A stretch of DNA of 62,264 nt, filler included, from Nemertoderma westbladi (Eukaryota; Animalia; Xenacoelomorpha), in assembly GCA_032718475.1 (NCBI GenBank). It is 3 parts of 3 records of this genome, joined end to end, with 100 filler letters (N's around TTAATTAATTAA, not from the genome) between each part and the next. Parts side by side here need not be neighbours in the genome. Positions count along the whole stretch, not along the records: positions 24,033 to 52,511 come from JAUCBJ010008655.1; 2 more parts are not named here. One strand, written 5' to 3'. Each line of letters begins with the position of its first letter. The first letter of the stretch is position 1. The position numbers and the translations under genes are program-made. The notes below the pieces were generated by a model, which had not been told where the DNA came from, ran no database searches, and was given only the letters and a program-made list of their open reading frames with translations. This document shows positions 8,823 through 49,170 of this stretch, in pieces.

Positions 8823-8827
8823 TATAA
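6500..8827 (+). CDS. RTE endonuclease C-terminus + reverse transcriptase (N-truncated)
   Basis: QLDYIL, SDHR, NYRGI, FVDFKKAFDS, GVLQGDTLAP, FADD, FQYLGS, and the RTE-type C-terminus RLRFSGH..RGRP. Confidence 0.93.
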   Translation: MIPTNNTFEKSKGTFQYPNGTKAQLDYILINKKWRNSMINCEAYSSFNLIGSDHRIVTAEIRLSLRASKPRTSKQINYDWEKLRTDNAVKDAYTVEVQNRFEALQSMDEDQSTDSIYQNIITAHKQSAKRHIPQKPKRKQYVPWQNSEVTCKREDLKIAYKVKTEQPTTENINKVEKAKDDLKLAYNISQEKYIQDKTEAITTAHIQQQSRLTWQTVNEVSGRKSCAKGRLKADSPEERVRKWKNHFSNLLGQPPNIEVSPTRKIYDKTLPIETEDFTPAELQRSIKSMSNNKASELDEIPAEVWKTGALNRPLLNVCNRMLKGEKPPPIWTKGQLKPLPKKGDLGIPTNYRGICLLVVAAKIYNKMILYRIRPHIEKLLRKSQNGFRPSRSTIAQILVLRRLIEGIKSKNLPAVMTFVDFKKAFDSIHRGKMLEILRAYGIPEVIVAGIGLLYCDTEAQVLSPDGETEFFSILAGVLQGDTLAPLLFVIVLDYAMRTATKGEDLGFTLQERRSSRYPATTVTDTDFADDIALLSNTLADAQLLLNKVERAAKEVGLHINATKTEFMTFNVDGNLTTIDNNQLRKVDDFQYLGSWIESSKKDIEVRKAKAWVALSKMDTIWKSDLSRHLKTKFFRATVESVFLYGGETWTLTKSLEQRIYGCYTRLLRAALNISWRQHMTNAELYGTIPPVSTTLRERRLRFSGHCWRSKDEVIPDLLLWQPTHGKRSRGRPAITYIDQLERDTELGRNEIATTMENREAWCPSSLDLVVVVVVV

Positions 8828-22742: not shown

Positions 22743-23756
22743 CTATCTCGGCCTTGCCTTTGGCAGCATCATTGCTTCATTATACTTGGAGCCCATCACC
22801 ACGCTTCCATCTTTACCATCGCCTCGCAGTTCTAATATCAGTTTCCAAGCATCTATATAGTTGGCTTTCCATAAACTGACGCAATCATCCACACCAGCGC
22901 TCGCTAATATCGTACCGGTAACATTCCAACATACACGCCAAACAACGCAATCGTCGCGCAGCGGGACCTTACTGAGCAACTGGTAGGGAGTGGGACCGTT
23001 CGTGGGTTTAATGATAAACACCTGGCAACCCTTGGCGCCCGCCACTGCGAGCATAGAGTAGGAGCGCCCCAGATGGGGGGCGAAAGCCAAGTCATTAACG
23101 GGACTCATTAACTCGAGACTTAGGTCGACCGCTATCCACTGCCGCTGCTGACTGCTGTACTCGAATAAGGCGACTCGACAGGCCGTCTGCTGGGGGTTGG
23201 CATTGTCGCTACCAGCAGCGAGAAGCGGCGGGTGTCGCATCGAGCCATTCCACGCGACGCAACTCAACCCCATCTTACACTGTATCTCAGCGTGCATCGT
23301 CCAGTGACTCGGGTTAAGAACATCCGTGGCCTCGTACACGCGGACGTGTCCGTCCAGAGAGCTGGTCGCTAGCATTAAGCCGAGGTGTTTCGGTGCGAAT
23401 CTCACGTCGGTAACCGAGCCGCTCGAGTCGACCAGGTTGCCGCGTTTCAACCAACTCACGTGCGTCTCGCCCTGCGGTCCGCGGCTCACGTGCTGCTCCC
23501 AGACGATAGCGGTTCGATCGAATGAACAGGTCGCCAGCAGCGTGCCGAACTCTGGATGCGCCCAGTTTACCTTCCAGATAGAGCCGTGGTGCGCTTTCCA
23601 CGTTTCCGTAAGATGCCATTCCTTCTCGGAATCTAGACTGAATACCTCCACTGTCTGGTCCGACGAACACGTGGCCATTCTACGGCCATGGTAGTCGAAG
23701 GCCACGTCATGTATGAGGTCTTTGTGAGAGGTTGTAATAGGATTGGAGGAATACAT
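22743..23756 (-). CDS. SEH1L: Nucleoporin SEH1 (WD40; Nup107-160 and GATOR2 subunit), intronless CDS
   Basis: HKDLIHDVAFDYHGRRMATCSSDQ, WAHPEFG, ATCSFDRT, VTDVRFAPKHLGL, VWRVCWNVTGTILAS and WKANY are hallmark SEH1 segments. Complete 337-aa ORF. Confidence 0.96.
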   Translation of the reverse strand: MYSSNPITTSHKDLIHDVAFDYHGRRMATCSSDQTVEVFSLDSEKEWHLTETWKAHHGSIWKVNWAHPEFGTLLATCSFDRTAIVWEQHVSRGPQGETHVSWLKRGNLVDSSGSVTDVRFAPKHLGLMLATSSLDGHVRVYEATDVLNPSHWTMHAEIQCKMGLSCVAWNGSMRHPPLLAAGSDNANPQQTACRVALFEYSSQQRQWIAVDLSLELMSPVNDLAFAPHLGRSYSMLAVAGAKGCQVFIIKPTNGPTPYQLLSKVPLRDDCVVWRVCWNVTGTILASAGVDDCVSLWKANYIDAWKLILELRGDGKDGSVVMGSKYNEAMMLPKARPR

Positions 23757-23932
23757 TATTTATTTCATGGGTATGTCACGATTGCAGGATTGGGGGGTAG
23801 CCTAGGCCTACATATATTTTACATTAACGTTATTTTACAGTATACCGGTAGTGTCAGAACAGGTTGTCCCAGAAGGGTAAATCTTTTCGACCTACGCGTA
23901 GCTACGCGTAGTTTGTAACTTCCATTCTTGTC

Positions 23933-24032
23933 NNNNNNNNNNNNNNNNNNNNNNNNNNNNNNNNNNNNNNNNNNNNTTAATTAATTAANNNNNNNNNNNN
24001 NNNNNNNNNNNNNNNNNNNNNNNNNNNNNNNN
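23933..24032. other. Assembly gap spacer (N run with TTAATTAATTAA linker)
   Basis: The same 100-nt construct recurs at 52512-52611. Confidence 0.98.
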
Positions 24033-25736
24033 ACAGGCCTAATTATTTCAGGCTCATCTACTATAGTAGGGAGTCTTTCTATTTTAATTATTTGGTCTGT
24101 GGGCTCTGTACTACCTACTTTGGTGTTATTTAGTTGCCTTCTAACAGCTGGAGGCAAATCAGGCAATTTCTGCCGGTGGAATGTTCTTTTACGTCTGCTT
24201 AGACGAGATCTATTTCCTTTGCCTTCAGTATCGGTGGTATCGCCTTCTTCAGATGATGTATATCCCTGTCTTTTGGGAGTAGATCGATTCATCATCTGCA
24301 TATTACTAGCTGTTAACTGTTTACTGAAGTCGTCTTGCTTCTCTTGAAGCGTTTCCAACTCCAGTTGGGCGATCTCTTCAGCCGCTCTCCGTTCTGCTTC
24401 TGCTGCTGCCGCTTTTGCCTCTGCCGCTGCCGCTTTTGCCTCTGCCGCTGCTTCTGCTACTGCCGCTTTTGCTCTGCCGCTGCTTCTGCTCTGCCGCTTT
24501 TGCCTCTGCCGCTGCTTCTGCTGCTGCCGCTTTTGCCTCTGCCTCTGCTTTTGCTGCGGCCTTTCTGTCTTCTATACGTTTTTTCCTTACTTGTTCTTCT
24601 TGTTCTCTAACGATGCGGAGTTGTTCATCGAATTTAGCCTGGTTCGCAGCCCTCATTTCCACATCGATGGCATCCAACACAAGCTTGGTTCCTTCACTAT
24701 TAGGGCTAAGTCCCTCTAACCTTCTCCTCAACTCGTCATCACCTAAAAAACGTTGATAGTCTGACAGATAGATGTCAATGGCATCCCTCTTATGCGGTTT
24801 CTCTGCCGTCGCTTCACTTTCCACTTGGGAAAAAGTAGCGTCTGTTGATTCTCCATGGGTTGAGCGCTCCTCCAACTGAGCTTTCCACTGAGCTGCTCCT
24901 TGAACCTGGCGACTCACCCGTTGAAACCAAGTCTTCACGGCAACTTGCAACGACGTGTCTTGTCTTCTTTTAGAAGCCTCTTCGAAGGCGGATAAGATTA
25001 GCCTAATTCGTAGAACTCTTTCTCTAACTTGATAAAGCAGCGATCCCTGCTCTTGAGGTCCTTGAGGTTGTTGAAACAGTTGTCTCTCTACTCGCTCCAT
25101 AGAGCTGAAGAATCCCTGTGCGTATCCGGCTGCGGACCTCTTCCATACAGCTGGATCGATGGTTTCCTTGGCTACTCCCATCCGGTGTATGTCTTCCCAG
25201 GCAGCTTCTGATAAATCAAACGGGAGTCCGGGTCCGGGGAAGTTCCATTGCGACTCGACAATAGACTTCAGTTCTTCTCTCGTGTACCCCGCGTAACTAT
25301 CTCTAGTTGATCGTTGACTCCTCGCCCAATCGATCTGGTGTTCTTCCACCGCGATCAATAACCTGGCGAGCACGGCTGCAGGAAGGATGAGAAGGGGATC
25401 CGTATAAACCGCATCCGTCATCTCTGCTCCGCGCTCGGGTGTCAGCTCTACAGTATCCTCACTACTGGAGCTGCTGGGCCGCTGAGGAATAAGTTCTTGA
25501 CTAGCGGGTTGTTGCTGTTCCGCTGCCTTTTGGTCCCGCTTGACCTGAGCTCGAGTGCCTATGATAGACCTACGATGTTGGACCAGCCTAGGTTCTGTTA
25601 TTACTACTGGAGGGATGACCTTCCTCACAGTGGGAGGTGAACTGGATTTACGACCAGACGGTTGTACGTCTCTATCTGAGTCGCAGATAGTTACATCTAA
25701 TAAACTGTCTGACAGGTTCTGCTTAGTATCAGACAT
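24033..25736 (-). pseudogene. gag-like ORF with Ala/Glu/Lys coiled-coil repeat and a frameshift near 24490
   Basis: The AEAKAAAA repeat continues in the alternate frame into ORF 23981-24358. First ORF after the putative PBS. No zinc knuckle seen before the gap. Confidence 0.5.
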
Positions 25737-27111
25737 GACTATGTATACCGTTGAATGTCTACTGCTGTATTACAGTCTGAGTAAGTCTAGTAACTCAGTA
25801 TTAACTGCTAGCCTAGTAATTAATTACCGGTACTGCTACTCAGTGTAGCGTGATATATATATAATATATTAGAATACCGGTATGCTTATAGTATATATAA
25901 CTATATAAGTATTATTACAGACTAGGTTTATCACAGAATACCGGTATAATTTTAGCACAAATATATATAAATATATAATAGGCCTATCGGAATACCGGTA
26001 TACAGCTTACAGTTTGTAGTATATATAATTCTGGAATAGAATTAATTACAAGTACCGGTATAATTTCAGCCTAGATTTATAGAAATAAGATAATAGGCCT
26101 ATCGTAAATACCGGTATATCAATTATTTTAGAATAATTGAATTTCTGAACTTTAAGGGTTACTTTGTTACTTTACTTACTTTATTACCGTTATTTGAGCA
26201 GTAGTCCAACTGATATTGAGACCTAATGGTTTTATGGTAGGCCTACTATTTATAAATCGTTAGATTTGATTTATAATGTATTTATACCCGTTTTAATGGG
26301 TTTAGTCAATGTTTGAAATAAATGTTATTATTTCTGGGGTAATCACTACACAAAGCGGTGCGCTTTCAGTGAAGTGTTACGTATAGGACACTAAAACAAA
26401 TAATTCTAATTTACCTAAGTTACTTAATACTACAAATTACGTACAATTCGGGTGAGATTACAATCTCTAAATAAACACAAAAATTTACAAAAAACACAAA
26501 ATACGAATTTTTAGGGTAATTTTACAAGAAGTCTACAAACCAGCCTAACAAAGGGTTAGATAACCGGTTATTACAACGGACAGAGTACTACGGTATTTGA
26601 AATAATAAGTAGTAGTAAATACACTGCGTTGTCTAGATAGGAAAATACCACCGCCTGACGACCTATAGCCGTATCGCTATAGGTTCTACGTTATGTATCA
26701 CGGAGTGTTCCTACCTAGAAGTTAATAGAGCTAATCGAATGTGCCTATCAACCACTTTACAACACAGATATAATGTCTACACTAATTACTTCGGAAAGTA
26801 CTGTACACTAAACCCTAAATTAGGTACGAGTACTTGTACAACAGATAATCAGTAGTTAAATATACTTGAACAGCTAAAAGAACCACGGCATCTGCTGGAG
26901 TGACCGATGCACAAAATCACCAGTCTTTACCTACGCCGAGCAGCCCGTGTAGTACCGGGGTTAATTTAACTATAGCGGTATGTATAACAAACACAATTAC
27001 TGTAGGAACAAACTTGGGGAATGAATGTTGCGGATAATCGCATAAACTCTGAATAATAAATATTACGCTACGCGTACAAACTACTCAAACAAAATACAGA
27101 CCGAACACTGA

Positions 27112-28026: not shown

Positions 28027-29238
28027 TGTCTTCTAGATATTAAATCGCTTTTTAGCCTATGACAAGTATTTGATTCACTACACTAGTCGAAACCAATCCG
28101 TGCGCGACCATTCACCCGCTGGATATTCCCGGGAGATTGGGTTCGACGGTTTAATTTTATTGCTATGTAAGCTTAATGTATTATTCGACTGACAGTATTA
28201 TATAATCTCTGACAATATTATTTACCTTCGGGAATATTAACAGTTCCTTTAGGACGTGGCGCTTTATCTATATAAACAGAGTTATGACTTAAACTACTCA
28301 CAACGATATGGCTTAATTATAATTCACATATATGGCGCATTCTTTAGGAATTGCTTCTTTAACAGACTCGCTCATACGCAATGCTGCACAATACTGCACA
28401 CTAATCTGCCAATCTTCACTGATTTTAGTCACATATAAAAGGAACACAGACTGACTCATGTAGGGTCTATCAAATAACATTAGATTCACTTCAAACCACT
28501 TTAACATAAGTCACAATCGTTATTGGTAACCTTTATCTCTTACCTTCGGTATATCAAGAATATTGGGTGTCGGGGTTATTTCTCGTTATTCCAATATAAT
28601 AATTCATCAACCATATTATGAAGAACTGACAGTAAATAGCAGTATAACAATATAAAAGTATGCACAGGTTGTTTGATTAGGTATGATATGTCAGTTAGCA
28701 GTATGCCGGTCCGCAGATCAATCGTGCCAGTTTGTTTTGATATTTACAGAGTTTAAAGCCAGGTTGTTTGATGCGTAATTGCAGCCAGTTAAAGGATATA
28801 TGTCCTTGTAATTAAACCTACTAGTGTTGAGCTAAAAAGCATAAAACATAAAACACTAAAAGCCGTTCTTTCGTGGCTTTGAAAAACTCGTGACTACTGC
28901 TCTATACGAGGATACCAACTCCCTTATTCCACGAAGCTCCCGTTCAACACAGAGAAAGAGCAGTGAGATAGGAAATTTTCAGTTCAGTGCTCTGTGATAG
29001 GTCGAAATCAAGGCTAACTCAAATTCTATTGGGAGATACAACACAAGGCTATGACGCAACCTCCCTAGGCTTGTTGGCCGATTAAACAGAGCCCAGATGC
29101 CTGCGTATAGCAAATCAGCCAATAAGCTGGTAACTTGCACTATTTTTAACTGTAGATCACTTTGAGAGTATTCTTAGCGACTGGGGGGGAACTGGCCAAC
29201 AAGGCAAACGAATCAGTTATCCCACAAAAGCTTTTACA
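28027..29238 (-). repeat. Putative 5' LTR of the minus-strand element
   Basis: TGT...ACA ends, CCAAT-like boxes near 29030-29125 and a polyA signal at 28161-28156. No second copy in the window to confirm. Confidence 0.45.
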
Positions 29239-29929
29239 GGACTCACAACGGGCTGACAGACCCCTTGCCAAGCCGTACCACTTTCCTGATGACCGATCCC
29301 TTCGGGGTTCGGGAAGGGTGGGACGGACACGCAACGGGGTCGAAAGACAAAGGACCTGACTCTACTGGCCTACCGACTATTCGGAGCAGCTTCTCATCTA
29401 CCGAAGCGACTACGAGCCTGAAAGGGACTCGGAAAACTTAGGTGGTTGGGACCCTGCGATGAACCGACAGACCCTTAGCCAAGCCGTACCGCTTTCCTGA
29501 TGACCGATCCCTTTGGGGTTCGGGAAGGGTGGGACGGACACACAACAGGGTCGACCGACACCGACACTACGGTACCGAGACTAGGACTGAGGGAAAATGG
29601 GGAACATTAGTTATTTTAAAATCTAAAGCGAACAGTGGGTAATTAAATAATGTACTGTAGGAATTTATATGTTCATATATTATTGTGAATATTTGGTGTA
29701 TATTGGTGTGGGGAAGCCCAACTTATTCTCAATCAAGATTCAACTGTAGGAAAGTTACATTAAAAGATTATATCCAACCAATGCAACGTTTTCTCAATTG
29801 CAATCTTGCATCTCAGAAAGGACTCCTTCTCCACTCCCAATATCCGGTGACTGGCCGGAATCCCGTGGTCTGAAAATTCCGCCTCCAGCATCGGCGTTTT
29901 TCCCCATGGTGTCGAGAATAACGGCAACA
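29239..29929 (+). repeat. BEL 5' LTR, 3' portion only (691 bp)
   Basis: Colinear with 40080-40770 with scattered substitutions and no net indel. Ends GGCAACA. Confidence 0.92.
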
Positions 29930-30307
29930 AAATTGAGAATAAGACGCAGCCAACTTCAACTGGTGGAAGTTGGGAATTCTACAGTACTCTTCAAACTCTC
30001 TCCGTGCTTACCCAGCACCCACTACGAGGAAACTCTGGTATTTGATTTAAGACAAAGCTGTGGTTTAATCAACTTACAAACTCAAACTAAAACTCGTAGT
30101 CGGCAGATCATTAATAGAGAGTTGTTAACAGTGAATGGAAGTATCGATTACACCTATTGATATAATCCAAGTTGAGCCAGGAATCTGGCACATTGAAGTC
30201 GAAGTACAAGGAATGAACGTTGGACGATTCAGGATTACCGTTCGGGTAGTCCAGGCTGAATACGAAACCTACGACATCGCATATCTAGCAATAAACGAGG
30301 CGCTAGA

Positions 30308-33300
30308 ATGACGACGAATAACGTCTCCGACACCGACGAAATGGACCTCCACACAGACTCGGAAATCGACGAGGTCCCAAATGTAAAGAACATGGCCCGT
30401 CGACTGGGCGCTCTCAAAGGCAGAGTGACTCGAGCATATCACCGCATCGAGAAACAACTAAAGGGAGCCGAGACCCCCCTCAGCGATATACAGACTCAAC
30501 TACAGAATATCCGAAGTATCCTACAACGATATGAACGGATGATACAGGCATATCAGGAACTCATCTCCGCAACCGATCTGGGAAACTACCCCAGACTGGA
30601 AGAACACGTCGCACATCTGGACGAGTTCCGCAAGCAATATCGGAGGACCCTCAGCCTCGTAAGAGGCTATGAGGAACAGTACTACAAAAGAACTGAAAGG
30701 ACGGATGTGGAATCAGTGCGGACCTCCGGAACCAGGACCGTGGTTCAGCGAAAGAGAACTGGGTCCTAGAGGCACCAGCACTCCAGCGCCAGGAGCGAGA
30801 TATCCGGTTCAGCGCGCAGTTCCCAAGGGGGTCAACCACTCCGAGATCAGCTCTGAGAACAGAGGGCATTGGCCCTTAAAGCTCGAATGGAAGACGAATA
30901 TGTCCAACTGCAGATTGAACAGGATGTACTGGCGGAGGAGAGACATAAACAGGAGGCCGAAATACAGGCCGAGATACGTAAACAAGAGGCCGAACGACAA
31001 AAACAAGAGGCTGAACAACAAAAACAAGAGGCCGAACAACAGGCCGAGATACGTAAACGAGAGGCCGAACAACAGGCCGAGATACGTAAACAAGAGGCCG
31101 AACAACAGGCCGAGATACGTAAACAAAAGGCCGAAATGCGTAAAGTAGAGGCCGAACAACAGGCTGAGATACGTAAACAAGAGGCCGAAATGCGTAAACG
31201 AAATGCCGAGGCCCAAGCGATTCTTATTCACAAAAAGAATGCGGACATTGCTAAACTCGCAGAATACGAGGCCGCCTAATAGAACGGGACCTTCAATTGT
31301 ACGAGGACTGGGAAAGGGGTATCAAACAAGACTATGAACCAATTCCGGTCCCGGAATTAGAAAAGTCATTTACGCCACCGGCTGCGAAACCTCCGAAACC
31401 CGAGTTCCTGCCTACTATACAGTCCACGTTATCGGCACAAGCACCGGTATTCCATCCTCCACCGGTTACGCTTAAGAATGAGGAACCCTATTTCACCTCC
31501 AATCCTACGGCACCGAGCGTTCCCCAGTACGAGCCTGAAAAGGACTCAGAACCACTCGATCCAATAATCCATTCACATCCACACCGAAAATCTGTAACCG
31601 CGTCATCATTAAAACTCCACCTCTCATTGATCCATCATGTATGGGAGAAAGCGTTAGTAACTATAATCCTCCTAGTCATCCCAGTTCGGACGACGTCGGC
31701 ATCATCCGAGCATTAGAGAACCGCCTATCTATGCCCAAGATGGAAATCCGTACATTCGAGGGAGACCCCGTTGATTATCTCGGATTTAAAAAACGGTTCT
31801 TTGCTCAGATCGGATCAACAGACATAACTGATGCGCAAAAACTGGTATATTTATCTCAATACCTGGGTGATAAACCACGCCGAATCGTTAAATGTTTCGA
31901 AGGAGGATCTCACGAAGCGTACCACGATGCGTGGAAAACTCTAGATTAAAGATATGGTAACATGAAATTGGAAAAAAAATTAAATTGAAAATTGGAACAT
32001 CAGAACTATAATCAATAAGACGATTGAAAAACTGATACAGGACGCTGGATCCCTAGGGGACCCACAGAATATCCAAGAGTTTTCGGACTCAATGAAAGAC
32101 GCTTACTACACTTTAAAACCATTAAACAAGGAAGAACAAGTAAACAACATCCTAAACCTCCGACAGATTGCCCGGAAGTTCCCCGGATGGTTGCAAAGCA
32201 AATGGGCGTATAAATGTGTCGATCTCCGATGCAGACACCCGGATCGAGATCCTAGTTTCCTCGAAATGTCGGCATTCCTAGATAACATTTCCGAAGCCAT
32301 GAATGACTCAATGTTCTCCAAGCAAAGTCTCTCCAAGTTAGACGGAATAGAGAACAACTCTAGGAGCAGAGCACCCACTCCGAAACCGAGATTCCGCCCC
32401 CTTCTGGTGAGTACGATGGCCATCACCATGGCCGGGGATTCCGATGACGAGGACTATGAGGAACCGACATCAGCCGAGGAATGGGCGTGTTATCTAGCGA
32501 ATTGGGCACCCAAAAGGGAAGGCACCACAACCTCCCTTCTATGTCTCTTCTGTGGGGAGAAACACAAGGTGGAATTCTGCAGAAAGTTCCAGTTTGCTGA
32601 ACTCGTTCCACGCTTCGAGGCAATAATGAAACACCGAGGATGCTTCCGGTGTCTCAGAACAGGTCACTACGTCCGGGATTGCGACCAAAGTCGCGCGGTC
32701 TGTAACGACCTACGACATCACACACTCCTCCACATTCCTGCTAATTTCGATTTCACTACCCTACCGTTCCGGATCGAATCCAAACGGAGAGGAGAAACGA
32801 ATCACGTCTCCAAGGGTACCCGGATGATTCAGCAGAGGGAAACCAATCCGTTTAAGACCACCGCCGATGTATCACATGTGACCAGTATATCAGCTACGGT
32901 CAATTTAATAAACCGCCGTTATATGGTCTTCGCCAAAGTGATCCCAGTAAGAATCCAAGTGGTCGGAAAATCCTCAACAACACTCGCGTTCCTCGACAAC
33001 GGGTCGGATGGAACCATCATCGACTGGGATTTCCTCGAACAACTAGGCCTAGACTACGAACCTTGCAAGCGGCCCATACAGACTATAACTGACCATAAAG
33101 AACTGGAGTCCGGGGAGGTACAACTCAAGATGGAAGGAGTTATGAAGGGTTACGAGATGGTCAAACTGACGATCAAAAATGCTCTGGTACACACCGATCT
33201 CCGAGTGCGGTTCCGACAATCATCTGAATACGCACCCCTCATACAGTTAGACCGGGAAGATGTGGATCTACGATGCCCACCGTTGGACGTGAACAGAATT

Positions 33301-35165
33301 ACGCTATTAATTGGACTTGATACACCGGAATTACATATACCAACCGGAGACATCGCCCGATCCGTAAAGCCGGACGACGGTTTTTATGCGGAGCGCACCA
33401 TCATGGGATGGACACTCTGCGGCATCAAAGAGGAAACTACCGACACATATACATATCTCCCTAAATGCCAGATCAAAGAGAACGCAACATCTGTGGGTTA
33501 CTGTTCAGTAACAGACCTGGAAGAGGATTTATTGTTGGAAACCGAAAATACCCAACAGGAGATTCATAAAGTCCATGGAAGCGCCACCGTGGAAATCTAT
33601 AGTTGCCTGACCGAGCCTGCAAAGGACTCGGGCAGGCACTATAATGTTGCGACCACTATGCAACCAGCCGCGTCCTTACACCTATTGATAGAGTGAACTT
33701 CCTCGATGAGACATCTTATCCACCACGTCATGACTCTTCGTAACTTCCTGCGGTGGAGGGATAATACACCGATAGTTCGACGAAGTATACGAGAACTCAT
33801 TATTGCGGAGAAATGTATTGTTAAATATGTCCAGAAAGAAAGTTTCCCCGATGAATGGGAACAGCTCAGTGCGGGCAAGACCTTGAAACCGGACAGCCCA
33901 GTCTACCAGTTGAGACCCATGATGGGCGAAGATGGACTGATCCGACTAGATACCCGGATGGCAAACGCCCCGGTCGAATATGAAGTCAAATACCCAGCAC
34001 TTCTGCCCGGAACGTCAACACTAGCCAAGCTATTAATCCAACAGTGTCACGAGGAAAACCATCACGCGGGCCAGAACTGGATTATGGCTAACATCCGGCA
34101 AAGATATTGGATCACCCACATCCAGCCACTGATCCGGAAAGTCTTAAAACGTTGTTTCCCTTGCAGACGATACCTAGCGCCACTGCTCACCCAAAGAATG
34201 GCCGACCTACCGGCTACACGGCTGCAGTCCGATTCACCGCCGTTCTATGTAACCGGAGTAGACTGTTTCAGACCATTTACCATTATCGAGCGACGATCCA
34301 ACATCAAATGCTGGGGAGCCATCTTCACATGCCTTAGGTCAAGGGCGATTTACCTAGACCTCGTGGTAAACCTCACGCAGCACGCCTTTATCAACGCTCT
34401 GCGTCGGTTCGTGGCAAACAACGGATCATGCCGGCATATGTACTCCGATAATGGAACGAACTTCGTGGGAGGAGAAAGGGAACTCAGAGAGGCTATCGAG
34501 GGATGGTTCACTGAAGAGACCGCATCCTAAGTCTGGAAGGAACACCATATACAATGGCACTTCCAAACACCCTTGGCACCCCATACGAGCAGGGTATGGG
34601 AGAAACTCATCGACTTGGTGAAACGATCCATGCGCGTCGCGTTAGGGGATACCCGGGTAACCCACGACACCCTTCGCACTATATTCTGCGAGATCACGGC
34701 CACCCTAAACAACCGGCCCATCGTACCTATCCACGATGACCCCACAGATCTAGAGCCTCTTACACCTAACCATCTACTTGGAAGACCCAAAACCAACATT
34801 CTTCCAGAGGCAATGTTCCCAGATCCCAACGATATCGCGAGACATACCAATTGGAAAAAGGCCCAAGAGCTGGCAGCGCATTGGTGGAGAATCTGGGCCC
34901 AAGAGTACCTCATAACCCTCCGGACCAGGAGGAAGTGGAATAACACCAACAGGAACGTCGCAGTTGGCGACATGGTGCTGGTTAAGGAAGACCTTAAAGA
35001 CCGCGTCCACTGGCCTGTGGCGCGAGTCATGGAAATAACCCCAAGTAAAGACGGACTTGCGAGGACTGTGATGATACGAACGGCATAGGGCCACTACCAA
35101 CGCCCTATCCAGAGGCTGTGCCTTCTTGAAGGCAATGACAGCGGTGACTCCACGAGAAATGATAA
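30308..35165 (+). pseudogene. BEL gag-protease-integrase polyprotein, disrupted by stops/frameshifts
   Basis: BEL gag segment MPKMEIRTFEGDPVDY; three Cys/His boxes CLFCGEKH..C, CFRCLRTGH..C and C..RHHTLLH; protease FLDNGS; integrase H..HH..C..C, GVDCF, SDNGTNFVG, LTPNHLL; C-terminal VGDMVLV..WPVARV..RPIQRLCLL. Confidence 0.93.
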
Positions 35166-35172
35166 GTTCCCT

Positions 35173-36175
35173 ACTCCAGATCCTGCTGCAGACATTGGTG
35201 ACAATGCTAAACCCGTTTAAACCCTTCTCATCCTGTTGACAAACTCTTTTTATATGAGATTTACCAACAATGAATAATGGACCCCCTTAAACCAACTGTA
35301 ACCACGCAATGGTATTTGTGTTTCCTCGTGTGTTATGTGGAGTCCAGCGTCACCCTGCAGATGTTTCAACTGATGCAGGGTAGTTTATGTATTGTTCACC
35401 CTGATTTTGGTCATCCCCTGATTTCACTCCAGATCCTGCTGCAGACATTGGTGACAATGCTAAACCCGTTTAAACCCTTCTCATCCTGTTGACAAACTCT
35501 TTTTATATGAGATTTACCGACAATGAATAATGGACCCCCTTAAACCAACTGTAACCACACAATGGTATTTGTGTTTCCTCGTGTGTTATGTGGAGTCCAG
35601 CGTCACCCTGCAGATGTTTCAACTGATGCAGGGTAGTTTATGTATTGTTCACCCTGATTTTGGTCATCGGGACCAACTCCATTGGATTATTGGAAATGGT
35701 AAAGATTTGAAGTGGAATTCATTGTATCCATTGTGTTGTATTGTGTTGTCCGTTGCGTGTGCAGTTCGGGGCGTAGGTGGTGTAACTAGTCCAGCTGTAG
35801 ATCCCAGATTGCCGCGCAACACCCCCTCTATCACGTTATTCTGGTGGGTCCATGGTGCATCCACATGACTTCGTCGATAGAGGTTTTATGTTTCTCAGTC
35901 GCATTACTCTGGTGGGACCGTTGCGTGGATTTTGGGGCGTAGGCGGTGTAACTAGTCCAGCTGTAGATCCCAGAATGTTGCATAACCCCATGACATGACT
36001 TCGTCGGCTGAGCTTTATGTTGCTGGGAGTGTTATTCTGATGGGTCCCTGGTGCATTCCACGTGACTTCACTTCCAGCGTCTTCATTGTCCATTACGTGT
36101 GCAGTTTGGGGCGTAGGCGGTGTAACTAGCCCAGCTGTAGATCCCAGATTGCCGCGTAACACCCCTTCCACAACA
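35173..36175. repeat. Repeats in the BEL pol-ORF2 spacer: a 253-bp tandem duplication and three copies of a ~60-bp motif
   Basis: ACTCCAGATCCTGCTGCAGAC at 35173 and 35426. GGGGCGTAGG(T/C)GGTGTAACTAG(T/C)CCAGCTGTAGATCCCAGA at ~35768, ~35934 and ~36108. Confidence 0.9.
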
Positions 36176-36689
36176 ACGAAAATTTCCCAAAGAAGATGGT
36201 TGAATGTAGTTTGGAAATGATGAAAAGAAACAGACAACCCTACTATAAACTGAATGATGACGCGTATGATGATGAAAATGTAATGATGCGCACCCTGGTG
36301 CTGCACTTATAACAAATGATGATAGCCGGCCAATGAAATGTGGAAATAAATGAAATGTGGAAATAAATGATGAAATGTGATGAAATAATGAAATGTGAAA
36401 TGAGTAATAAATGAGAAATGAAAAAAGACAAAAAAATTTATAAAATGTAGAAAAGAAAATAATTGGAAAAAGAAGAGGACATAAAAAGTCAAAAAACTGG
36501 TTGGATAATAATGTATAGCTATAGTAACTGTAAATACTGAATGTAGTAGCAATAAGATGGTAGATGCCTATATAGCAATAATAATAAACTGAATAATAAT
36601 AAACTGAATTATTCTGCAGTCACTATAGAATCAGACTTTCTGGATTTATAACTAACTGATTTAAATTTGCAACGGACATAATTTAAAAT

Positions 36690-39289
36690 ATGGACTCAAA
36701 TCGCCAAATTCTCGGCGAATTACGTAACATACTCGATTTACTGGAATATCCACAGCCTGGATCTCCTAACTTTGATACGAAATGGAACGCCCTGATAACA
36801 GAGAATGTGCGAATCATTAAATTCTCCGGGCGGGAGGAACCGGATTCCCATAATCTATGAGAGCTCCGGTTGTCCGATGTCAGTACAAGCCTGAAAAGGA
36901 CTCGGAACGCAAAGGCAACCGGAGGAGAGGAGTTGTCATTCTGGGATACGTTCCGGCGAAGCGTCTACAAATCCCGATGTTTGATATACGACAATGAGGT
37001 AAACGCGACGCCCACCTCGAAAGCGATCACGTTGGCGCGATGCCAAAGTTTTGTCGACTACAAGAGTACATACCTCGCCCACTGGGGAAACCTAGCGGAA
37101 TGTACAGCGACGCTGCGAGAGGAGCGTATATCAGTTATCCAGAACCGCGACGACTACCAGGAGAAGTATGGGACGAAGGAATACGGTCGATCATTAATCG
37201 TCGTCCTCGGAACCCTAGATGGTCTAGTGTTGATATGTCAAATATTCCCAACACCCAAACAGGAGGTGCGGACAGCAGGAGCAGTCTGGCTATTACCACC
37301 GGAGATCCAACAGATCCTATTCGATTTCAATGTTATTAAAATTGGGTCGGATATAAAGGTGGATGTCCGAAACGACTATGCTAACGCTCCCTTCAGAAGA
37401 AACCGTTGAGAAGACCTTAACACCATTAGTCACTTCGTCAACACTCAAACCCTGTTAGCCTGGTTGCGATCCACAGAATTCATGTGTGGATTCCGGGAAG
37501 TGAGACCGATGAAATCCGGTATCGGCTACCTCGTGGTGCTAAACAGCGGTATAGACTTTAAGCCTCAGAAATTCCTGAACTATAATAAGATATATGGTGC
37601 ACACCCGGAATTAGAGATAAAGAATGAGCGAGAGAATCGTTGGAAGGACGTAGAAAGAAAGTGGACGATCCACCAGAAATGGGAGAATCCGGATCGATGG
37701 AACTTTATCTACGTCACAATGGAATCATATACTGTTGCCAAGTTCATCTGTAAGACTCTCGATAAACTCATTAATGAGGTTCCTAGATCCTTTATTGACT
37801 ATGAGTGGAACGAGGTTATCGACCACGCGTTCAAAGCAGAAGAGAATATTCCACCGGGAGATACGAAAACGCTCAACGTCATCGCATCCTGGGATGATAA
37901 CGGACCGTTCGACATCCCTACGATTGTTGATCTCCTCGGTGCGGAGGAACCACTGATATCATCGGACGGGGAGGAATTATGGCTACAGGAAGGTGTCCTG
38001 CTGTCCACCCCAAAACGACAACTTGAACCGGAAGTCGCTTACGAACCAGCAGCCAAACGGGTCGCCGCGGCCGAACCTGTGATGGAAGCAGGCGTATCCA
38101 CCCCACTTGGCTCTGGTAGTCCCGCTAGTGAGTTAGTAACCACCTTCGCGCTGAGTGACTTCGGCGACACATGTCAGAGGTTATCTCCATATCCGTTCCC
38201 GGGAGGAGAAGACTGGTCTTCAGAGATCCTGAGTACCAGCACCCAGCGGACCCGCTCAGTTATACAGGTTGCGAAGGGTCCCAGCGTTGCTCCAACCCCT
38301 ATAGACCTCCTCGGAATTCCCCCGGCGAACGCCCCAGCACCCCTTCGCCGACCGGCTGTGGCAACGGCCCCCTCCGTTCAACAAGACCCTATGCGACTTA
38401 CCCGATGGTACGCCGAACAAACCGAGTGGATCCACCGCCAGAAACAGGCTCCCGGGACGCGACCGGCGGGCTATAAGGAAGGTTATCGTAGCGAGAACAT
38501 ACTCCGCCAAAGCCCAGCATTCCGCGGGCTACCGGCAACTGCGAGTATCCCCAAAAGTGACCGACGGCTGGAGTATTACGCCGGCGTACCGATCCCGATA
38601 TTCTTCGGCCGGGAGATGCAACTGGAGGTGTGCGGAAACTGCGGTTTGGAACAGTGTCCGCGCGGAAGGAGAAATCGGGTTACCGATTCGTGCCTCCAGC
38701 TACTTGGGATACTTTACTGTCCCTATTGCGCGATATCGGGCCACATGTTTCGGTTTGTCCTACCCTTTACAACCTCTGCACAAAATGCGGTTTCCGTGGA
38801 CATTCCGAGAGCCCCCGTTGTAACATAAAGTGTCCTACTAAGGACATAACAGCTATGGGAAATATGGTTATGTTTGAAACCTACGCCAATAACCACATAA
38901 AGACCAAAGTACATAGAAATGCTCGAAATATCGTGCAAGAGATGGCGTGCGGATACTTCTTGTTCCCAGAACGCCTCCATACGACAGCGATGCTACCATT
39001 CCATTATGTGGATCTACTATTGGGCGCTGGATTATTCGGTCCCTTCGAGATCCTCAGGCGCTTATACTCCTACAAAGAAGAATTCGGTGACGGAAAGTGG
39101 TTTCTAGAGGCACGCACTACCGAGTTGGAGAGACGGACGGACATGATCCCGCTACCATCCAAAGGAAGGGCCGCCAGGAGACAAGCTGCAGCGATGCTCG
39201 CGATGGACGTTGACGCTCCCCTACCTGCACTGGCGATCGACGAGAGTAGACGGGTGAAGAGAAGGAAAGCGTATCAGAGTAAGAAATAA
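36690..39289 (+). pseudogene. Extra ORF inside BEL element: putative DEDDy (WRN/EXD-like) 3'-5' exonuclease + CCHC zinc knuckles
   Basis: One frame from ATG 36690 through TGA 36858 and TGA 37407, then a 1-nt frameshift near 38745. Motifs IYDNE, LPPEIQQILFDFNVIKIGSDIKVD, W..FIYVTME, CPYCAISGHxVSVC and CTKCGFRGH. Confidence 0.7.
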
Positions 39290-39466
39290 AGGACCAGGAT
39301 ATTCTATGGACATTTATATCGAACATTTATTTTTATATCTACATAAACTAACTCTAGGAAAAATTAATCAGGACTATGCAATATTAAAATTTGGGTTTTT
39401 TATATGGGGAAATGACCTACGCAAACTTGATCTACCGATAAACCTCACGAAGGTCATTGGGGGGAC

Positions 39467-40770
39467 TGTTCGCGGTATTTCAACTTTTCATAACGCGAGT
39501 TGAATATTTTTTGGATTTATTTATAATGAATATTCCAATATCAGTACTGGGTGCGGGAACATGGAATTTGGGTACATTCAATGGACTGGGGGCGATTCAT
39601 GGGCGAATATTGGGGCGACTTACGGGGCACAGAACTCATATCAGATATTTAAGGGCCAAGGGCGGTAGGCAAAATCAAGCAGTACTCAGGTTTACCTGAT
39701 ACTATTAGGCCTAGCCAATTTCCTGCTGCCTGTAGAGGTGGATTTGGTAACTCGCTAGGCCTAGGGACAAGGACTGCCCTTAGCGGTCCCTGGCCAACAG
39801 CAGTTATTACGAAAACTCGAAAGGACTCGGAAAGTCTACTGATTGTGTCAGGGATTTGCGATGGGAACCGACAGACAAAACCTTAGCGGTCCCTGGTGAC
39901 CGGCAGTTATTACGAGCCTGAATAGGGACTCGGAAAGCTTGCCGACTGCACCGGGGACTTGCGACGGATCGACCGACTAAACGGAGGAAGGGATCGACGA
40001 GGACTGCCTTCCTGGAGTGGGTTCCACGACCGGCATTAGTACGAGCCTGAATAAGGACTCGGAAAGCTACCGAAAGTTGGGACTCACAACAGGCTGACAG
40101 ACCCCTTGCCAAGCCGTACCGCTTTCCTGATGACCGATCCATTTGGGGTTTGGGAAGGGTGGGACGGACACGCAATGGCGTCGAAAGACAAAGGACCATA
40201 CGCTACTGGCGTACCGACTATTCGGAGCAGCTTCTCGGCTACCGAAGCGACTACGAGCCAGAAAGGGACTCGGTAAGCTTAGGTGGTTGGGACCCTGCGA
40301 TGAACCGACAGACCCTTAGCCAAGCCGTACCGCTTTCCTGATGACCGATCCCTTTGGGGTTCGGGAAGGGTGGGATGGACACGCAACAGGGTCGACCGAC
40401 ACCGACACTACGGCACCGAGACTAGGACCGAGGGAAAATGGGGAACATTAGTTAGGTTAAAATCTAAAGCGAACAGTGGGTAATTAAATAATGTATTGTA
40501 GGAATTTATATGTTCGTATATTATTGTGAATATTTGGTGTATATTGGTGTGGGGAAGCCCAACTTATTCTCAATCAAGATTCAACTGTAGGAAAGTTGCA
40601 TTAAAAGATTATATCCAACCAATGCAACGTTTTCTCAATTGCAATCTTGCATCTCAGAAAGGACTCCTTCTCCACTCCCAATATCCGGTGACTGGCCAGA
40701 ATCCCGTGGTCTGAAAATTCCGCCTCCAGCATCGGCGTTTTTCCCCATGGTGTCGGGAATAATGGCAACA
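39467..40770 (+). repeat. BEL 3' LTR (~1.3 kb) with internal repeats
   Basis: Starts TGTT right after the GGGGGGAC PPT and ends AACA. The 3' half matches the 5' LTR remnant. Confidence 0.85.
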
Positions 40771-41529
40771 TTTACAATAAAAAAAACCTATTTTAGAATG
40801 GATTTATTTTCCTATTCAGTAATTTAATTACGCAATTTGGTTTTTTAGTCTATAATGCTTTTCATCTTTGTGGTATCACGAAATCAGTCATTACTGCATT
40901 AGTTAGCATGCCACTACCACTACTGCATTATCTGACTATCAGACAGTGCAGCAGTGGAGAGGTCTCTCATCTCTCTGTCTATCCTCCATCCTGCTATCCG
41001 CTGTTAGCTTCTGGTCGATATAGAATACAGGAATAATAGTGAGCAATATAGGCCAATAAAAAAAAACTTACCAGTATCAATTAGGCAGAGGCAGATAGGC
41101 CTACCCTAATTTTTAACCTGCGGTATTTTTCAGACCACCGTGTTACTCCAAAAGTTAAACACACCCAAGGGGCGTTTTTTTAATGTAAATTTTCATATTA
41201 TAGCTCGTTATAGGTGGTTATAGCTTGTTTATAGGAAGTTATAGCCCGTTATAGATCGTTATACCTTTTAGTACGTACCCATTATACTGCCTTCTGATCC
41301 GCGGACCGAGGTACCCAAATTGCAGATTTTAGTTACCGGTATGTAATATTAACAGTCTGACAGTACATCGGCATAATAGATTTTTGTATAATATAATCAT
41401 GTACAATTAAATACAGAAATATACTGTACCGTAGCGTGGAGTAACATGAGACACTTTTTTCGGAATTTATTTAATATATTTTGATATAATAAGAATAATC
41501 ACTAAAGTTTATTAGTTTTTGAAAGGAAA

Positions 41530-44313: not shown

Positions 44314-47300
44314 TGTGAGCTATTGTACATACAGTAGTTTTATTATGCCTTGCTACCTGTAGATGGCGCTAGGCTAGCATTTATTATCTTTAGGTTTTCT
44401 TGCTGTAGTACTGTACACCGCGGCCTACATGAAGCCACGGCCCTACTGTAGTTGGTGTACCGGTACCATATATTATATGCGATATACTGATATGCATGAT
44501 ACATGGCGCAGTAATGTGTAGGATCACCCTACGCAGTTCTCTGAACCCCTCCCCCTCCCACGGGACTAGTAAATAGGGATTAAACCATGCCGGACCCTCA
44601 TGGGTGCCTCATGGCCTTCACTGGTTCCTTCCCTCCCCACTAAACTCATCCGGGGCTGTTAAGGATTTTTCCTCTCCCCGATGCCACACAAGAAACTGCA
44701 GCAAGACCGCAGTGAGCAGGGCTCGATACGATGGTGCCACGGAGGAGGCCGCTGGCTGCGTTGCCCCGCCACTCAACCTGGACTCCCTCGCGCGCATCCT
44801 GCAGGCCCAGTCCGAGGCCGCGGACCCGCGCAGCCGAGTCCGAGGCGCGAATTCTCCACTTCCTGCAGCAGGCGCCTGGCAATGCTGCTATACAGCCAGC
44901 CCACGCCGCGCCCCACGCAACCAACCCACCGAACGCCTTAACACGGCTTAATCGACACCTCGTCGATGGACAAAGTGGACTGCAAGATGTCCTATGCCAC
45001 CTTCCGATGGTGGCGTGCAGCCTGGCAGGTGAACTGCCAGCACCAACAGGTCGACACCTACCCCCGACAGACTCAGGTCTACTCGCTCCTCGCAGCTCTT
45101 GGGGGGGCGATACAGGAAATGATCCGGGTTACCCTCCGGATTGAAATAAATGACTGCTCCCCTTCGGTATAAACCCCTTCGGCCCCTCCTCAGTTCCAGG
45201 AACCAGTTCCTGTGGAACGACGACCATGAGCGGGCGTTTGAAGATACGAAGGCGCGACTCGTGACGACACCCATTCGTGACGACCCGGCACTAGACACGG
45301 TGCTGGAGATGGACTCCTCGCAACTACACAGCCTCGGATACGCGCTGCTCTAGCGCCATGACTCCGACTGGTGACTCATTGAGTGCGGATCTCGGTTCGT
45401 CACCAACACTTAATCCCGGTATGTGATGGTGGAGCTGGAACTGCTCGCACTCGTCTGGGCTGTGGAGAAATGCCAACTATATCTGTTGGGCCTCCCACAC
45501 TTTACCGCGGTTGTCGACCATCAACCCCTCATTACCATAGTGGATAAATATACATAGGACGTGATGGACAATACGCGACTCCAACGGCTCAAAACCCGCT
45601 TGGCGCCGTACTCATTCTCCATGATGTGGTGCAAGGGCAAGGAACACAGAAACCCGGATGCCCTATCCCAGTCCCCCGTCGACGACCCCACTCCCACCGA
45701 CATCGCGGATGATGGCGAGATGGCCGTCTATGTCTGGGCCGTCACCGAGTCTGTCGCTCGCTACCAACCTCGATGATGCCGTCCATGGCCGACTACCAGA
45801 CCCCCTCCTCGTCCAGTTGTCCCGCTTGGCGCACGATGACGACGACTACTGCACCCTAAGATCCGCAGTCGAGTCCGGGTTCCCCAACGCCGCCGCACAC
45901 GGCTCCGGCGTCCGCCCGTATTGGGGCATTCGAGAGGAGCTAACGACCGATGGCGATCTCGTTCTGTACGGCTCCCGCATAGTCGTCCCGGCCATGGCAT
46001 GGCGTGACGCACTCTCGCGCATACACTCCGCTCACCAAGGCATCGAGAAGTCGCTACGATGCGCCGCCAACTCCTATATCTGGGCGCATGCAGCTCATGT
46101 CTGACTCACCACGCCAGCCAACCGAAGGAGCCCCTCATTGCCGACCCTCTCCCGAATCGGCCATTCGAGGAAATCGCGGCCGACTTCTTCAAGCACACGG
46201 GTCGACACTTCCTGGCTGTGGTCGACCGATATTCGGGATGGTCCGAGATTGCCCCATTTCCCGAACCCCCCACCTCGATCACGACCGCGAAGGCCATGCG
46301 AGAAATTTTCACCCGCTTCAGTTTCCCCACCCACTTTCAGTCAGACTTTCAGCCCGTTCGTATCATTCCTCCACAATTGGGGCATCATCAAATGACTTCA
46401 TCGCCGGAATACCCCCAATCGAACGGGCTGGCAGAATCCGCAGTAAAGGCGCTCAAGGGCCTCCTAGACAAGACCAGGGGGGACGTCTCTTCGACACCCT
46501 TCCTAGAAGGCCTCCTCGAACTACGAAACTCACCACGGGAGCACGGACTATCCCCCACTGAAATCTTGTTTGGACACCCTGTCCGCACTCGGGTTCCCGG
46601 ACACCACTCCACCTTCACGCGCACCCACCAGGCAGCACGGACAGCCCTTGACCTCACAATACCCACCATCATGGCAAGCCTCAAACGGACCTACAAACGC
46701 GGAGCCCGGACACTCCCCACCCTCGCAGTCAGCGATCCTGTCCGAATCCAGCACCCACGAACCGGACACTGGGACCGGGCCGGCACCATTGCCAAAACCC
46801 GGCCCCTCCGTAAATACGTAGTCCGATTGCCATCCGGACGTTCCCTTGCCCGGAACCGCCACCACCTGTTGCGGGACACCTCCGCCACATCGGACACCAT
46901 GAGCTCGGACACCACCACCAGGGACACGACGCCGGGCACGGAACCCTCACCCAAGTGTGTCCATTGGTCCCCCACCTTGGTGACCACCAAACCCATCCCC
47001 GTGCGCACCACTCCCACTACTGATCGTTACAAGCGGCGACAACGGCGCCCCCAGCGGCTCTGGGGTACAACCCGTAATTCACGGACTGAAACTGAAAGTA
47101 ATTTGAGCCTTGCTTGTGCTGCGCGATGGACCGAACACGCCAGCACCCGGACTTTCGGACACTTACGGACATTATGATAGCCCCAGAAAAGTATTCCTGG
47201 GACTCGAAAGGGGATGTGAGCTATTGTACATACAGTTGTTTTATTACGCCTTGCTACCTGTTGATAGCGCTAGGCTAGCATTTATTATCTTTAGGTTTTC

Positions 47301-47705: not shown

Positions 47706-48801
47706 CTACTACTAGGATCGGCATGCTGCATTGCAGCTGCATTTTTAAGAATGCTGTGCCGGCTTATCGACAAAATTGCACCGCCACAACTCCCTATCAC
47801 CCATGACATTTGCTAGATCATCCGCATCTTCAAGGCCAGTGTCCTTTAAGATGCGTCTCAAGAAAGTCATGGGCTGTCCACCATGCTTATTCACTCCATG
47901 AGGCTGCCAAAGTACAAGATTATGCACTGGCTGGTCCTCACGGCGAAAGCAATGTCCTGCAAAGCGGAGGCGATTTTGTTCTAGTGTCAAGCTTGGGGGA
48001 ACCAATGAGACACCTCCAATGTTATATAGTGTCTGGTTGGAGATGTGTGCATTGTACTTGACACAATGAACCCGGCGTAGCATTCTTGTGAATGTGCCAT
48101 CCAGAGATTTGGAGTCCTCAGCAGTTAGAGCCCAGCATGGACTCCCATAGAGGAGTACTGGAACTACTGCTGCTCTAAATAATCGGACCTTAAGTGTCCG
48201 ATTAATTCTTGGTGACTTCCAAATCCTGGAAAGCCTATTCAAGGCTGCCCATGCCTTTCCCTTACGTATTCGAAGGTCCTCACCTGACTTCCGGATCCAT
48301 GATCCCAGATAACAGAAGTCATCCACATGCTCAAGCATACCATCTTTTGAGCTTATGCTCATCCGATCAGAGACTTGCTGAGGACTTTCAAAGTTAACTG
48401 TCAAAATTTTGGTCTTTCTTGAGTTAATAAAAAGACCAACACTAGAAGCTGCATCTTCTAATGAGCTGAGGAGCCATTGGGCTCCCTCTAGTGATTCTGA
48501 GAGTACTCCTAAGTCATCAGCAAAGTCTAGATCAGTTAGGTACTTGGCAGGATTTCCTCGCCTTCTGGAGCCAGTAGGTGGAGTTATCATCACCCCATCA
48601 TCATAATGATGATCTAAGGACATGCGTAGAACATAGTCAACAACAATTATGAACAAGAATGGTGCAAGTGTGTCTCCCTGGAGGACGCCCCATAACACTT
48701 CAAATGGTTCTGTGTCACCGTCAACAGTAGACACAAATGTTGTCGAACCATCGTATACTGATCTGATTGCTGCAATAATTTCATCAGGAACCCCATATAA
48801 T
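47706..48801 (-). mobile_element. 5'-truncated RTE-clade LINE (ORF 47745-48734 region, RT C-half)
   Basis: GVLQGDTLAP, FADD, YLGS and RLRFAGH motifs. 9-bp TSD GCTTAGCTA at 47697-47705 and 48802-48810. (TAG)n tail. Confidence 0.92.
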
Positions 48802-49170
48802 GCTTAGCTAATTCGGTTAAATACAGTAGGCCCTACAGCAGTAGATTGAGCACAGTGGCTGGCTGGCTGCAGATGGTGGTTTGACAGATGGGACCATACA
48901 GCCATAGCCTTGCTTCTATACAAACGTGTATAGAAGGCTATGGATGGGACAGCTATTGTCAGTCAGCCCTTACTACGACTTTTGTTATTGATAGTAACAA
49001 TGTGTTAGCAGGCTGTATTTTTCGAGGTGTTTGTTATTATACAGCTTTCCAATACATTGTTACTATCAATAATACAAATCAGGGGCTAATAAAATATGGA
49101 ATTAATACTCCATATCTCAAGAACCCAAAAACCTAAAATAATGGAATTAATACGCCATATCTCAAGAACC

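Follow-up and report, generated by a model that had tools for sequence, protein, structure and literature searches.

A deleted BEL/Pao-type element with a third open reading frame

The third gene of BEL/Pao retrotransposons has so far been catalogued only as env. In an element of Nemertoderma westbladi (assembly GCA_032718475.1), the place of env is taken by a long open reading frame, here called ORF3, and this raises the question of what the frame encodes, whether it belongs to the element and what it might do there. The window, that is, the whole stretch of DNA that was analysed, comprises 62,264 nucleotides, filler included; the element and all of its features lie on the plus strand. A sequence-only reading of this DNA had proposed that the frame encodes a captured DEDDy 3'-5' exonuclease with zinc knuckles.

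The element spans positions 29239–40770 and measures 11.5 kb without RT and RNase H. Only the 3' part of the 5' LTR is present (29239–29929, 691 bp, with a CA end), and it is 95.9% identical to 40080–40770, with 28 differences and no gaps over 691 bp; the missing 5' part matches nothing else within the window. The 3' LTR (39467–40770, ~1.3 kb, TG...CA), which matches the 5' LTR over its last 691 bp, most likely starts at the TG at 39467, as judged from this TG and from the polypurine tract (PPT, 39459–39466), a G-run directly 5' of it. BEL/Pao elements have a PBS for tRNA-Arg or tRNA-Gly after the 5' LTR; here no canonical TGG start of a PBS was seen by eye directly after 29929, and the window contains no tRNAs. 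Rfam gave no matches in 29000–41000; a hairpin in the LTR was considered as a hammerhead, a reading given up since the hairpin forms nothing but a plain stem.

The gag region (approximately 30260–32750), which is broken by stops and frameshifts, encodes a coiled coil, a DUF1759 domain (Pfam, E = 1.1e-4, under the gathering score) and a zinc knuckle (zf-CCHC, E = 0.0015, 32635–32688). It is followed by an aspartic protease (32962–33126; Asp_protease_2, E = 0.0011) and by an integrase with one internal stop (34018–35088), which comprises an H2C2 zinc domain (Pfam Integrase_H2C2, E = 1.1e-9), the core and a C-terminal DUF5641 domain (Pfam, E = 3.4e-23). DUF1759 and DUF5641, which we take to be BEL/Pao markers, are thus combined with gag knuckles, a protease 5' of the integrase, TG...CA ends and a PPT ahead of the 3' LTR. 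The RT and RNase H that BEL/Pao elements carry between protease and integrase are missing: the pol frames of this copy have no Pfam match to RVT_1 or Peptidase_A17, and the distance of ~0.9 kb between the protease match and the integrase zinc match leaves no room for them. The approximate junction is placed at 33557–33571, where contigs of sister copies part from the window copy; contig X2-10 aligns up to 33557 and continues with ~290 unlike letters, and contig X2-11 aligns from 33571. The window copy is a deleted, non-autonomous, dead element, and we word its class as 'BEL/Pao-type' because it has lost RT and RNase H. The sequence-only reading had mentioned neither this loss nor the truncation of the 5' LTR. 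Downstream of the integrase lies a 1.6-kb non-coding spacer (35089–36689) with short internal repeats and a 243-bp tandem duplication (35173–35415 and 35426–35668, 99% identical).

Layout of ORF3

ORF3 (36690–39289, about 865 codons) occupies the env position, in sense orientation between the integrase with its DUF5641 domain and the PPT and 3' LTR, exactly where the sequence-only reading had put it. The frame runs from an ATG at 36690 to a TAA at 39287–39289 with 864 sense codons and is broken in this copy by TGA codons at 36858 and 37407 and by a single-base frameshift near 38755. The first frame (36690–38756) contains 2 stops, far below the mean of 31.6 and the minimum of 15 in 1000 shuffles, which bears out the earlier reconstruction of three pieces into a single frame.

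Residues ~82–386 (36933–37847) make up a likely DnaQ/DEDDy-like domain, delimited by homology to the protein P0004, by motif scans and by profile comparison. It is followed by the Pro/Ala-rich linker of the earlier description (37848–38609), which is defined by composition (residues 386–640, 12% P and 10% A), and by a Cys/His cluster (38631–38821) consisting of a CX2CX4C group, an interrupted CX2CX4H knuckle and an intact CX2CX4HX5C knuckle. The two knuckles reported from the sequence differ in standing, the CX2CX4HX5C knuckle being intact (38777–38821) and the first one (CPYC, 38718) readable only across the frameshift; an additional Cys cluster (CGNC, 38631) precedes both. The sole Pfam trace in the knuckle region is zf-CCHC_4 (E = 0.079). 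The C-terminal 177 residues reach at best 0.85 in the ESM Atlas, to hypothetical giant-virus proteins, and such matches are leads only.

Judged by family matches and hydropathy, ORF3 does not look like an env gene, whose product would have a signal peptide, a fusogen ectodomain and a C-terminal TM anchor. No such family was matched, and the hydropathy maximum of its C-terminal part is 1.24. The sole hydrophobic window, 19 residues long, is internal (residues 168–186, Kyte-Doolittle mean 2.16) and aligns to the β2-β3 hairpin of DEDDy domains, so it is probably no TM helix, in agreement with the earlier remark that no TM segment was visible.

ORF3 is a long-resident gene of the element

Over 864 codons, 2.04 new stops are expected from half of the LTR divergence, and 2 are observed; because the observed stops are about as many as expected after insertion, the frame was intact until about that time. 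The RSCU values of ORF3 correlate with those of the element's pol (r = 0.76), and the correlations of three other, unrelated ORFs in the window with the same pol are 0.44, 0.04 and -0.18.

Sister copies were represented by contigs of three samples (X1–X3) from three studies of one organism, one sample possibly being the source of the window. The comparison covers 32 pieces, selected for length among >26,000, and some of them are probably the same copy in two runs. The 10 pieces wholly within ORF3 (79–92% identity) differ from the window by 453 substitutions and 8 gap letters, the 18 gag/pol pieces by 923 substitutions and 107 gap letters, and the 4 pieces touching non-coding DNA by 333 substitutions and 62 gap letters. 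The sister ORF3 pieces are at least as frame-preserving as the gag/pol pieces, unlike those touching non-coding DNA, and the frame is very probably not the one-off insertion that the earlier reading had considered as a possible refutation. At the 10 ORF3 sites that were listed, 6–36 contigs per site were counted in X1–X3, and the ratio of contig depth in ORF3 to that in gag/pol, which does not equal a ratio of copy numbers, is 0.63 (X1), 0.68 (X2) and 0.30 (X3). Eight of the 10 best-supported ORF3 difference sites fall at codon positions 1 or 2; this fits private decay of the window copy and is uninformative on selection in the family.

An element-specific hairpin motif of 19–20 nt lies within ORF3 (36887–36905) and recurs at 29414, 31531, 33613, 39914, 40043 and 40255. 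All seven copies are on the plus strand and within the element, none was found in 30 shuffles, and the frame in which the motif is read in ORF3 differs from that in gag/pol.

From the stop count, the pol-like codon use, the frame conservation in sister pieces and the embedded hairpin motif, we conclude that ORF3 has long been resident as an accessory gene in a multi-copy family of BEL/Pao type. An alternative would be that ORF3 is a neutral passenger, namely a host gene fragment gained once by one copy lineage, in favour of which it can be said that none of the 32 listed pieces among the >26,000 spans both sister ORF3 and gag/pol. We consider this highly improbable, as the frame holds even in sister pieces of only 79% identity, the stop count fits decay only since insertion, the codon use and the hairpin tie ORF3 to the element, and neither word-index searches nor a full HMMER scan found a close cellular gene.

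Searches for homologues of the ORF3 protein

Direct searches did not assign the ORF3 protein to a family. Its exonuclease part (P0001/P0002) matched no Pfam family at E ≤ 10, the PF01612 profile included, so that the Pfam comparison by which the exonuclease claim was to be checked came out negative. Nothing relevant to the ORF3 protein was found in PHROGs, NCBIfam or PDB sequences; PDB sequence matches to DJ-1 and calcium-channel beta (E of at least 0.16) were judged to be chance. Home-made bacterial DEDDy HMMs did not match P0002, and word-index searches yielded no homologue among 2484, 1780 and 7997 candidates. Scans of loci brought up no relative either, whether in two sets of metagenome stretches (54 and 97), in two sets of viral contigs (3 and 33) or in the phages searched.

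A single homologue, P0004, was retrieved (E = 3e-5) when 1.84 billion representative proteins were scanned in full with HMMER. It is a singleton, shares 33% identity with residues 155–383 of the query (pairwise E = 2e-13) and aligns with window-protein residues 156–389, a span that covers its ExoII motif, G-L-x-x-L helix and ExoIII motif. P0004 has the DEDDy motifs in order, with D176-x-E178, D252 (K-x-G-x-x-I-x-x-D) and Y351-x3-D355 (L-T-x-x-Q-x-x-Y-x3-D). Although P0004 has no relevant Pfam match, the ESM Atlas places its core near PF01612 clusters with a score of 0.94 (24 of 30 matches, 183 of 256 features); the top match, at 0.95, is an unnamed cluster, and the score is uncalibrated for part-proteins.

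A probable DnaQ fold with a partly altered motif set

To place the catalytic motifs, we used a PSSM from a control profile of 51 bacterial DEDDy domains, comprising 38 of 40 stand-alone PF01612 proteins and 13 of 30 RNase D loci, from which sequences failing a motif filter were left out. The 40 stand-alone proteins, chosen as WRN-like, turned out to be short RNase D-like proteins, presumably of the NrnC type, and the control profile is therefore not the ideal subfamily. With this PSSM, the ExoI, ExoII and ExoIII placements in P0004 were equalled by 1, 2 and 58 of 1000 shuffles, and those in the ORF3 protein by 61, 12 and 621. For the G-L-x-x-L helix block, 199 of 1000 shuffles did as well in the ORF3 protein and 212 did so in P0004; in the latter, the expected site ranked second.

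The motifs on which the exonuclease claim had been built, YDNE, KIGSDIKVD, SGIGYL and FIYVTME, are all found in ORF3, and they fare differently as members of a DEDDy set. The clear one is ExoII, KIGSDIKVD, whose D225 (37362) aligns with D252 of P0004 and with the invariant aspartate of the bacterial proteins; on this alignment, D225 is securely placed as the predicted ExoII aspartate. The SGIGYL motif is at 37515. The ExoI candidate YDNE (D101/E103, 36990–36998) is the best placement available, yet its register is uncertain, as 130 of 2000 shuffles did as well, or 409 of 2000 under free local alignment. D101/E103 lies 66 residues upstream of β2, whereas the distance in P0004 is 17, so that ~49 inserted residues would be needed, and both MAFFT and hhalign set a non-acidic stretch at ExoI instead of YDNE. 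ExoIII goes unrecognised by the profile, the PSSM placing no canonical Y-x3-D in the ORF3 protein; the candidates are D335 (37692) and E345 (37722), corresponding to W331-x3-D335 in the BLAST register and, within FIYVTME, to Y341-x3-E345 in the MAFFT register, both of them non-canonical.

Profiles were also compared by hhalign. Against the bacterial DEDDy profile (E = 0.0016, probability 15.9%), the pair of ORF3 and P0004 outscored all 200 column shuffles and all 200 block shuffles, with a thin margin of 24.9 versus a maximum of 24.1. The ORF3 core alone beat 99 of 100 shuffles, and for P0004 alone 42 of 100 block shuffles did as well.

For the structural check suggested by the sequence-only reading, two models were built. 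An unguided two-sequence AlphaFold model had a pLDDT of 27 and no usable fold. A model guided by an alignment of P0004 and 27 bacterial sequences (mean pLDDT 49.5) matched DnaQ-fold chains with Z of at most 5.7, rmsd of 4.5–5.4 and 164–177 aligned residues, every Foldseek E-value exceeding 0.001. Foldseek ranked RICE, EXD2 and Egalitarian, and VIA ranked Nibbler, RICE, EXD1 and WRN, at or above NrnC/RNase D, the source of the alignment. Because the fold is imposed by the alignment, these matches are circular and a mere subfamily lead, and the proposed membership in the WRN/EXD2/Nibbler/Egl subfamily shrinks to a weak, alignment-guided hint.

Taken through P0004, the sequence evidence makes it quite likely that the N-terminal domain of ORF3 has the DnaQ fold. 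A conserved accessory gene whose N-terminal domain is not DnaQ-like, with motif matches due to chance, would account for the lack of a direct family or structure match and for ExoI and ExoIII being individually non-significant in the ORF3 protein; we regard it as unlikely, given that P0004 has the three motifs in order and its high Atlas score to PF01612 clusters, and that the alignment between the two proteins spans ExoII, the G-L-x-x-L helix and ExoIII. Within a DnaQ-like domain, catalysis is uncertain and stands at roughly even chances, since the predicted ExoI is displaced and ExoIII altered, although ExoII is intact. Placement of the ORF3 protein in an active DEDDy family is not established.

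Possible role of ORF3

The reading that we put forward, with about as much confidence as doubt, is that this long-resident accessory gene combines a divergent DEDDy-fold domain with RNA-binding knuckles and acts on the element's own RNA. As a separate gene downstream of pol, ORF3 would depend on a spliced or subgenomic RNA for its expression, by analogy with ORF3s generally (PMC5408684). The C-terminal knuckles would hold the protein on RNA, and contact with RNA 3' ends would fall to the DEDDy-like domain, so that in the ribonucleoprotein particle the 3' ends of the element's own RNA would be trimmed if the enzyme is active and shielded or capped if it is inactive. A catalytically dead domain would be a 3'-end-binding module resembling EXD1, which the discussion of PMC5408684 gives as an example of 3'-end binding; 3'-end processing is proposed in the same paper for the rotifer DEDDy ORF3. 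The element's own RNA is the simplest target, but its choice is tentative, the chance falling slightly short of even. The repeated hairpin, a separate observation, may be a candidate binding site for the protein.

In the main alternative, the ORF3 protein would be a counter-silencing factor that degrades, mis-trims or sequesters host piRNA or siRNA or competes with host DEDDy factors such as Nibbler, Mut-7, EXD1 or Egalitarian. The guided model, in ranking RICE, EXD2, Egalitarian, Nibbler, EXD1 and WRN at or above NrnC/RNase D, speaks for it, as does the abundance of the family in the host (the 6–36 contigs per listed ORF3 site), and a silencing role is discussed for the rotifer ORF3s (PMC5408684). 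The same model, however, has low pLDDT, weak Foldseek E-values and Z-scores and a fold imposed by its alignment, and in the rotifers small RNAs covered every type of ORF and copy numbers did not clearly rise (PMC5408684). On balance, we find a counter-silencing factor rather doubtful, and action on the element's own RNA remains our preferred reading.

A bolder synthesis would have a BEL/Pao lineage independently gain an EXD2/Nibbler-type DEDDy domain fused to knuckles that read the element's repeated hairpin in the LTRs, gag, pol and ORF3. Together these would form a system distinguishing self from non-self RNA, in which own transcripts are protected and host silencing RNAs are trimmed or sequestered. 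We regard this as quite improbable.

Comparison with known systems

In PF01612 proteins, the ExoII motif has the family spacing K-x-G-x-x-I-x-x-D. The ORF3 protein resembles WRN-exo, EXD2, Nibbler (Mut-7), EXD1, Egalitarian and RICE, which belong to this family, in the order and spacing of ExoII, in the G-L/I-x-x-L helix and in the β2-β3 hairpin. It differs from them in lacking a PF01612 match, in an ExoI that is displaced by ~49 residues or lost and in an ExoIII that reads Y-x3-E or W-x3-D; the canonical full set of these proteins is also present in P0004.

Among mobile elements, Dada DNA transposons carry a DEDDy domain that has been proposed to act in 3'-end processing (PMC3706591), and they share with the window element a domain of the DEDDy 3'-5' exonuclease type. 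According to the available part of that description, the Dada domain lies within the DDE transposase and keeps the four acidic residues (PMC3706591), whereas the domain here belongs to a separate ORF of an LTR retroelement.

The ICTV profile of the Belpaoviridae lists gag, pol and env only and gives a size of 4.2–10 kb, which the window copy exceeds even without RT and RNase H (PMC8742986). Env-bearing BEL/Pao elements (roo, Tas, Atlas and elements with chuvirus glycoproteins) likewise have a third gene between the integrase and the 3' LTR, but the ORF3 cargo here is not a fusogen.

Juno and Vesta are gypsy-like. In these LTR elements of bdelloid rotifers, ORF3s for putative DEDDy exonucleases, with a DEED motif, were gained at least twice, as described by Rodriguez, Kenefick and Arkhipova in 2017, who also report such ORF3s as common to Athena/Terminon elements (PMC5408684). 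The available parts of PMC5718144 and PMC6431247 repeat this account, and that of PMC6338049 treats a DnaQ-like exonuclease as a well-known accessory domain in LTR elements. The cargo is less novel than the sequence-only reading assumed, being known from LTR elements, though not from BEL/Pao, for which no exonuclease case was found in our literature search. Its scope was open literature, with subscription journals, Repbase and GyDB outside it, so that earlier cataloguing is possible. The main text, as far as available, of the metazoan BEL/Pao survey (PMC3118150), of surveys of molluscs and annelids (PMC6238403, PMC8556966) and of PMC13524379 does not contain the word 'exonuclease'.

ORF3 was set beside the rotifer ORF3s by description only. 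Like them, it is an ORF of its own, not an env gene, that follows pol in an LTR element and takes the env position, with a DEDDy-type domain, an altered catalytic motif and no env-like TM anchor, and its function, as in Juno and Vesta, is merely predicted. The window element differs in being of BEL/Pao type, with DUF1759 and DUF5641. Against the rotifer DEED motif, ORF3 keeps the ExoII aspartate, and the altered motif is ExoIII; the long linker and C-terminal CCHC-like knuckles found here are not described for rotifer ORF3 in the available part of PMC5408684.

What is likely new is thus the same type of cargo in a BEL/Pao element, with a function that we infer, and by analogy the window element may work as the rotifer ORF3-bearing elements do. 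With this case, enzyme-type ORF3 cargo is no longer confined to the gypsy-like elements of rotifers but reaches a second LTR superfamily, which suggests that LTR elements recruited DEDDy-type domains repeatedly and convergently. If recruitment was convergent, its selective benefit, be it processing of own RNA or defence against small RNAs, becomes a general question. The homologue-poor ORF3 sequence points to a branch of DEDDy-like proteins that sampling has so far missed, and the ORF3 family and P0004 are natural material for testing that benefit.

Repeated signals and structure of the BEL/Pao-type element

A motif of 19–20 nt occurs seven times in the window (at 29414, 31531, 33613, 36887, 39914, 40043 and 40255, all on the + strand) and is confined to the sense strand of the BEL/Pao-type element, where its sites lie in both LTRs, gag, pol and the accessory frame ORF3. 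Six of the seven copies fold into short hairpins that contain a bulged A and have loops of 4–6 nt (−6.9 to −12.4 kcal/mol), while the copy in ORF3 (36887) folds more weakly (−3.4 kcal/mol). Because the motif is in another reading frame in ORF3, its role appears to be that of a signal in RNA or DNA, perhaps one for packaging.

The LTR also contains a 95-nt unit that is present twice (29255–29349 and 29466–29560), with counterparts in the 3′ LTR at 40096–40190 and 40307–40401. When folded computationally, these units form an extended stem with z values of −4.5 and −2.1, and an Rfam scan of 29000–41000 returned no match.

The RT and RNase H regions are absent from the window copy at 33557–33571. 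At this site, contigs of other copies continue as sequence unlike the window, which suggests that complete relatives of the element exist.

ORF3 is spanned nearly whole by contigs of run X5 (36750–37436 and 37416–39345). This run carries the label ‘DNA?’, and has a loose end at 40917. The loose letters there resemble a cDNA template-switch adapter, a hint that X5 may be a cDNA library. P0004, the only homologue found for the ORF3 protein, is a 472-aa singleton from a 2.2-kb contig; its DEDDy motif set looks canonical, and it had no match in Pfam.

Other genes and mobile-element remains

Further mobile-element remains lie at 1108–3903, 6443–8824, 47748–48803, 52884–53997, 45625–47174 and 58158–58760. 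They include two long LINE RT frames (RVT_1, E = 2e-24 and 6e-35) and, as judged by eye, additional RT-like fragments as well as one fragment each of a gypsy-like integrase and a Penelope-like RT. Two long overlapping frames of 463 and 196 codons (23984–25769, − strand), which contain coiled-coil repeats and adjoin an assembly gap, had no Pfam match and are possibly a gag-like gene from another element.

An intact, intronless frame of 338 codons (22746–23759, − strand) lies in a repeat-rich region and matched only WD40 families in Pfam. It resembles the nucleoporin Seh1 and may be either a retrocopy or a gene with a single exon.
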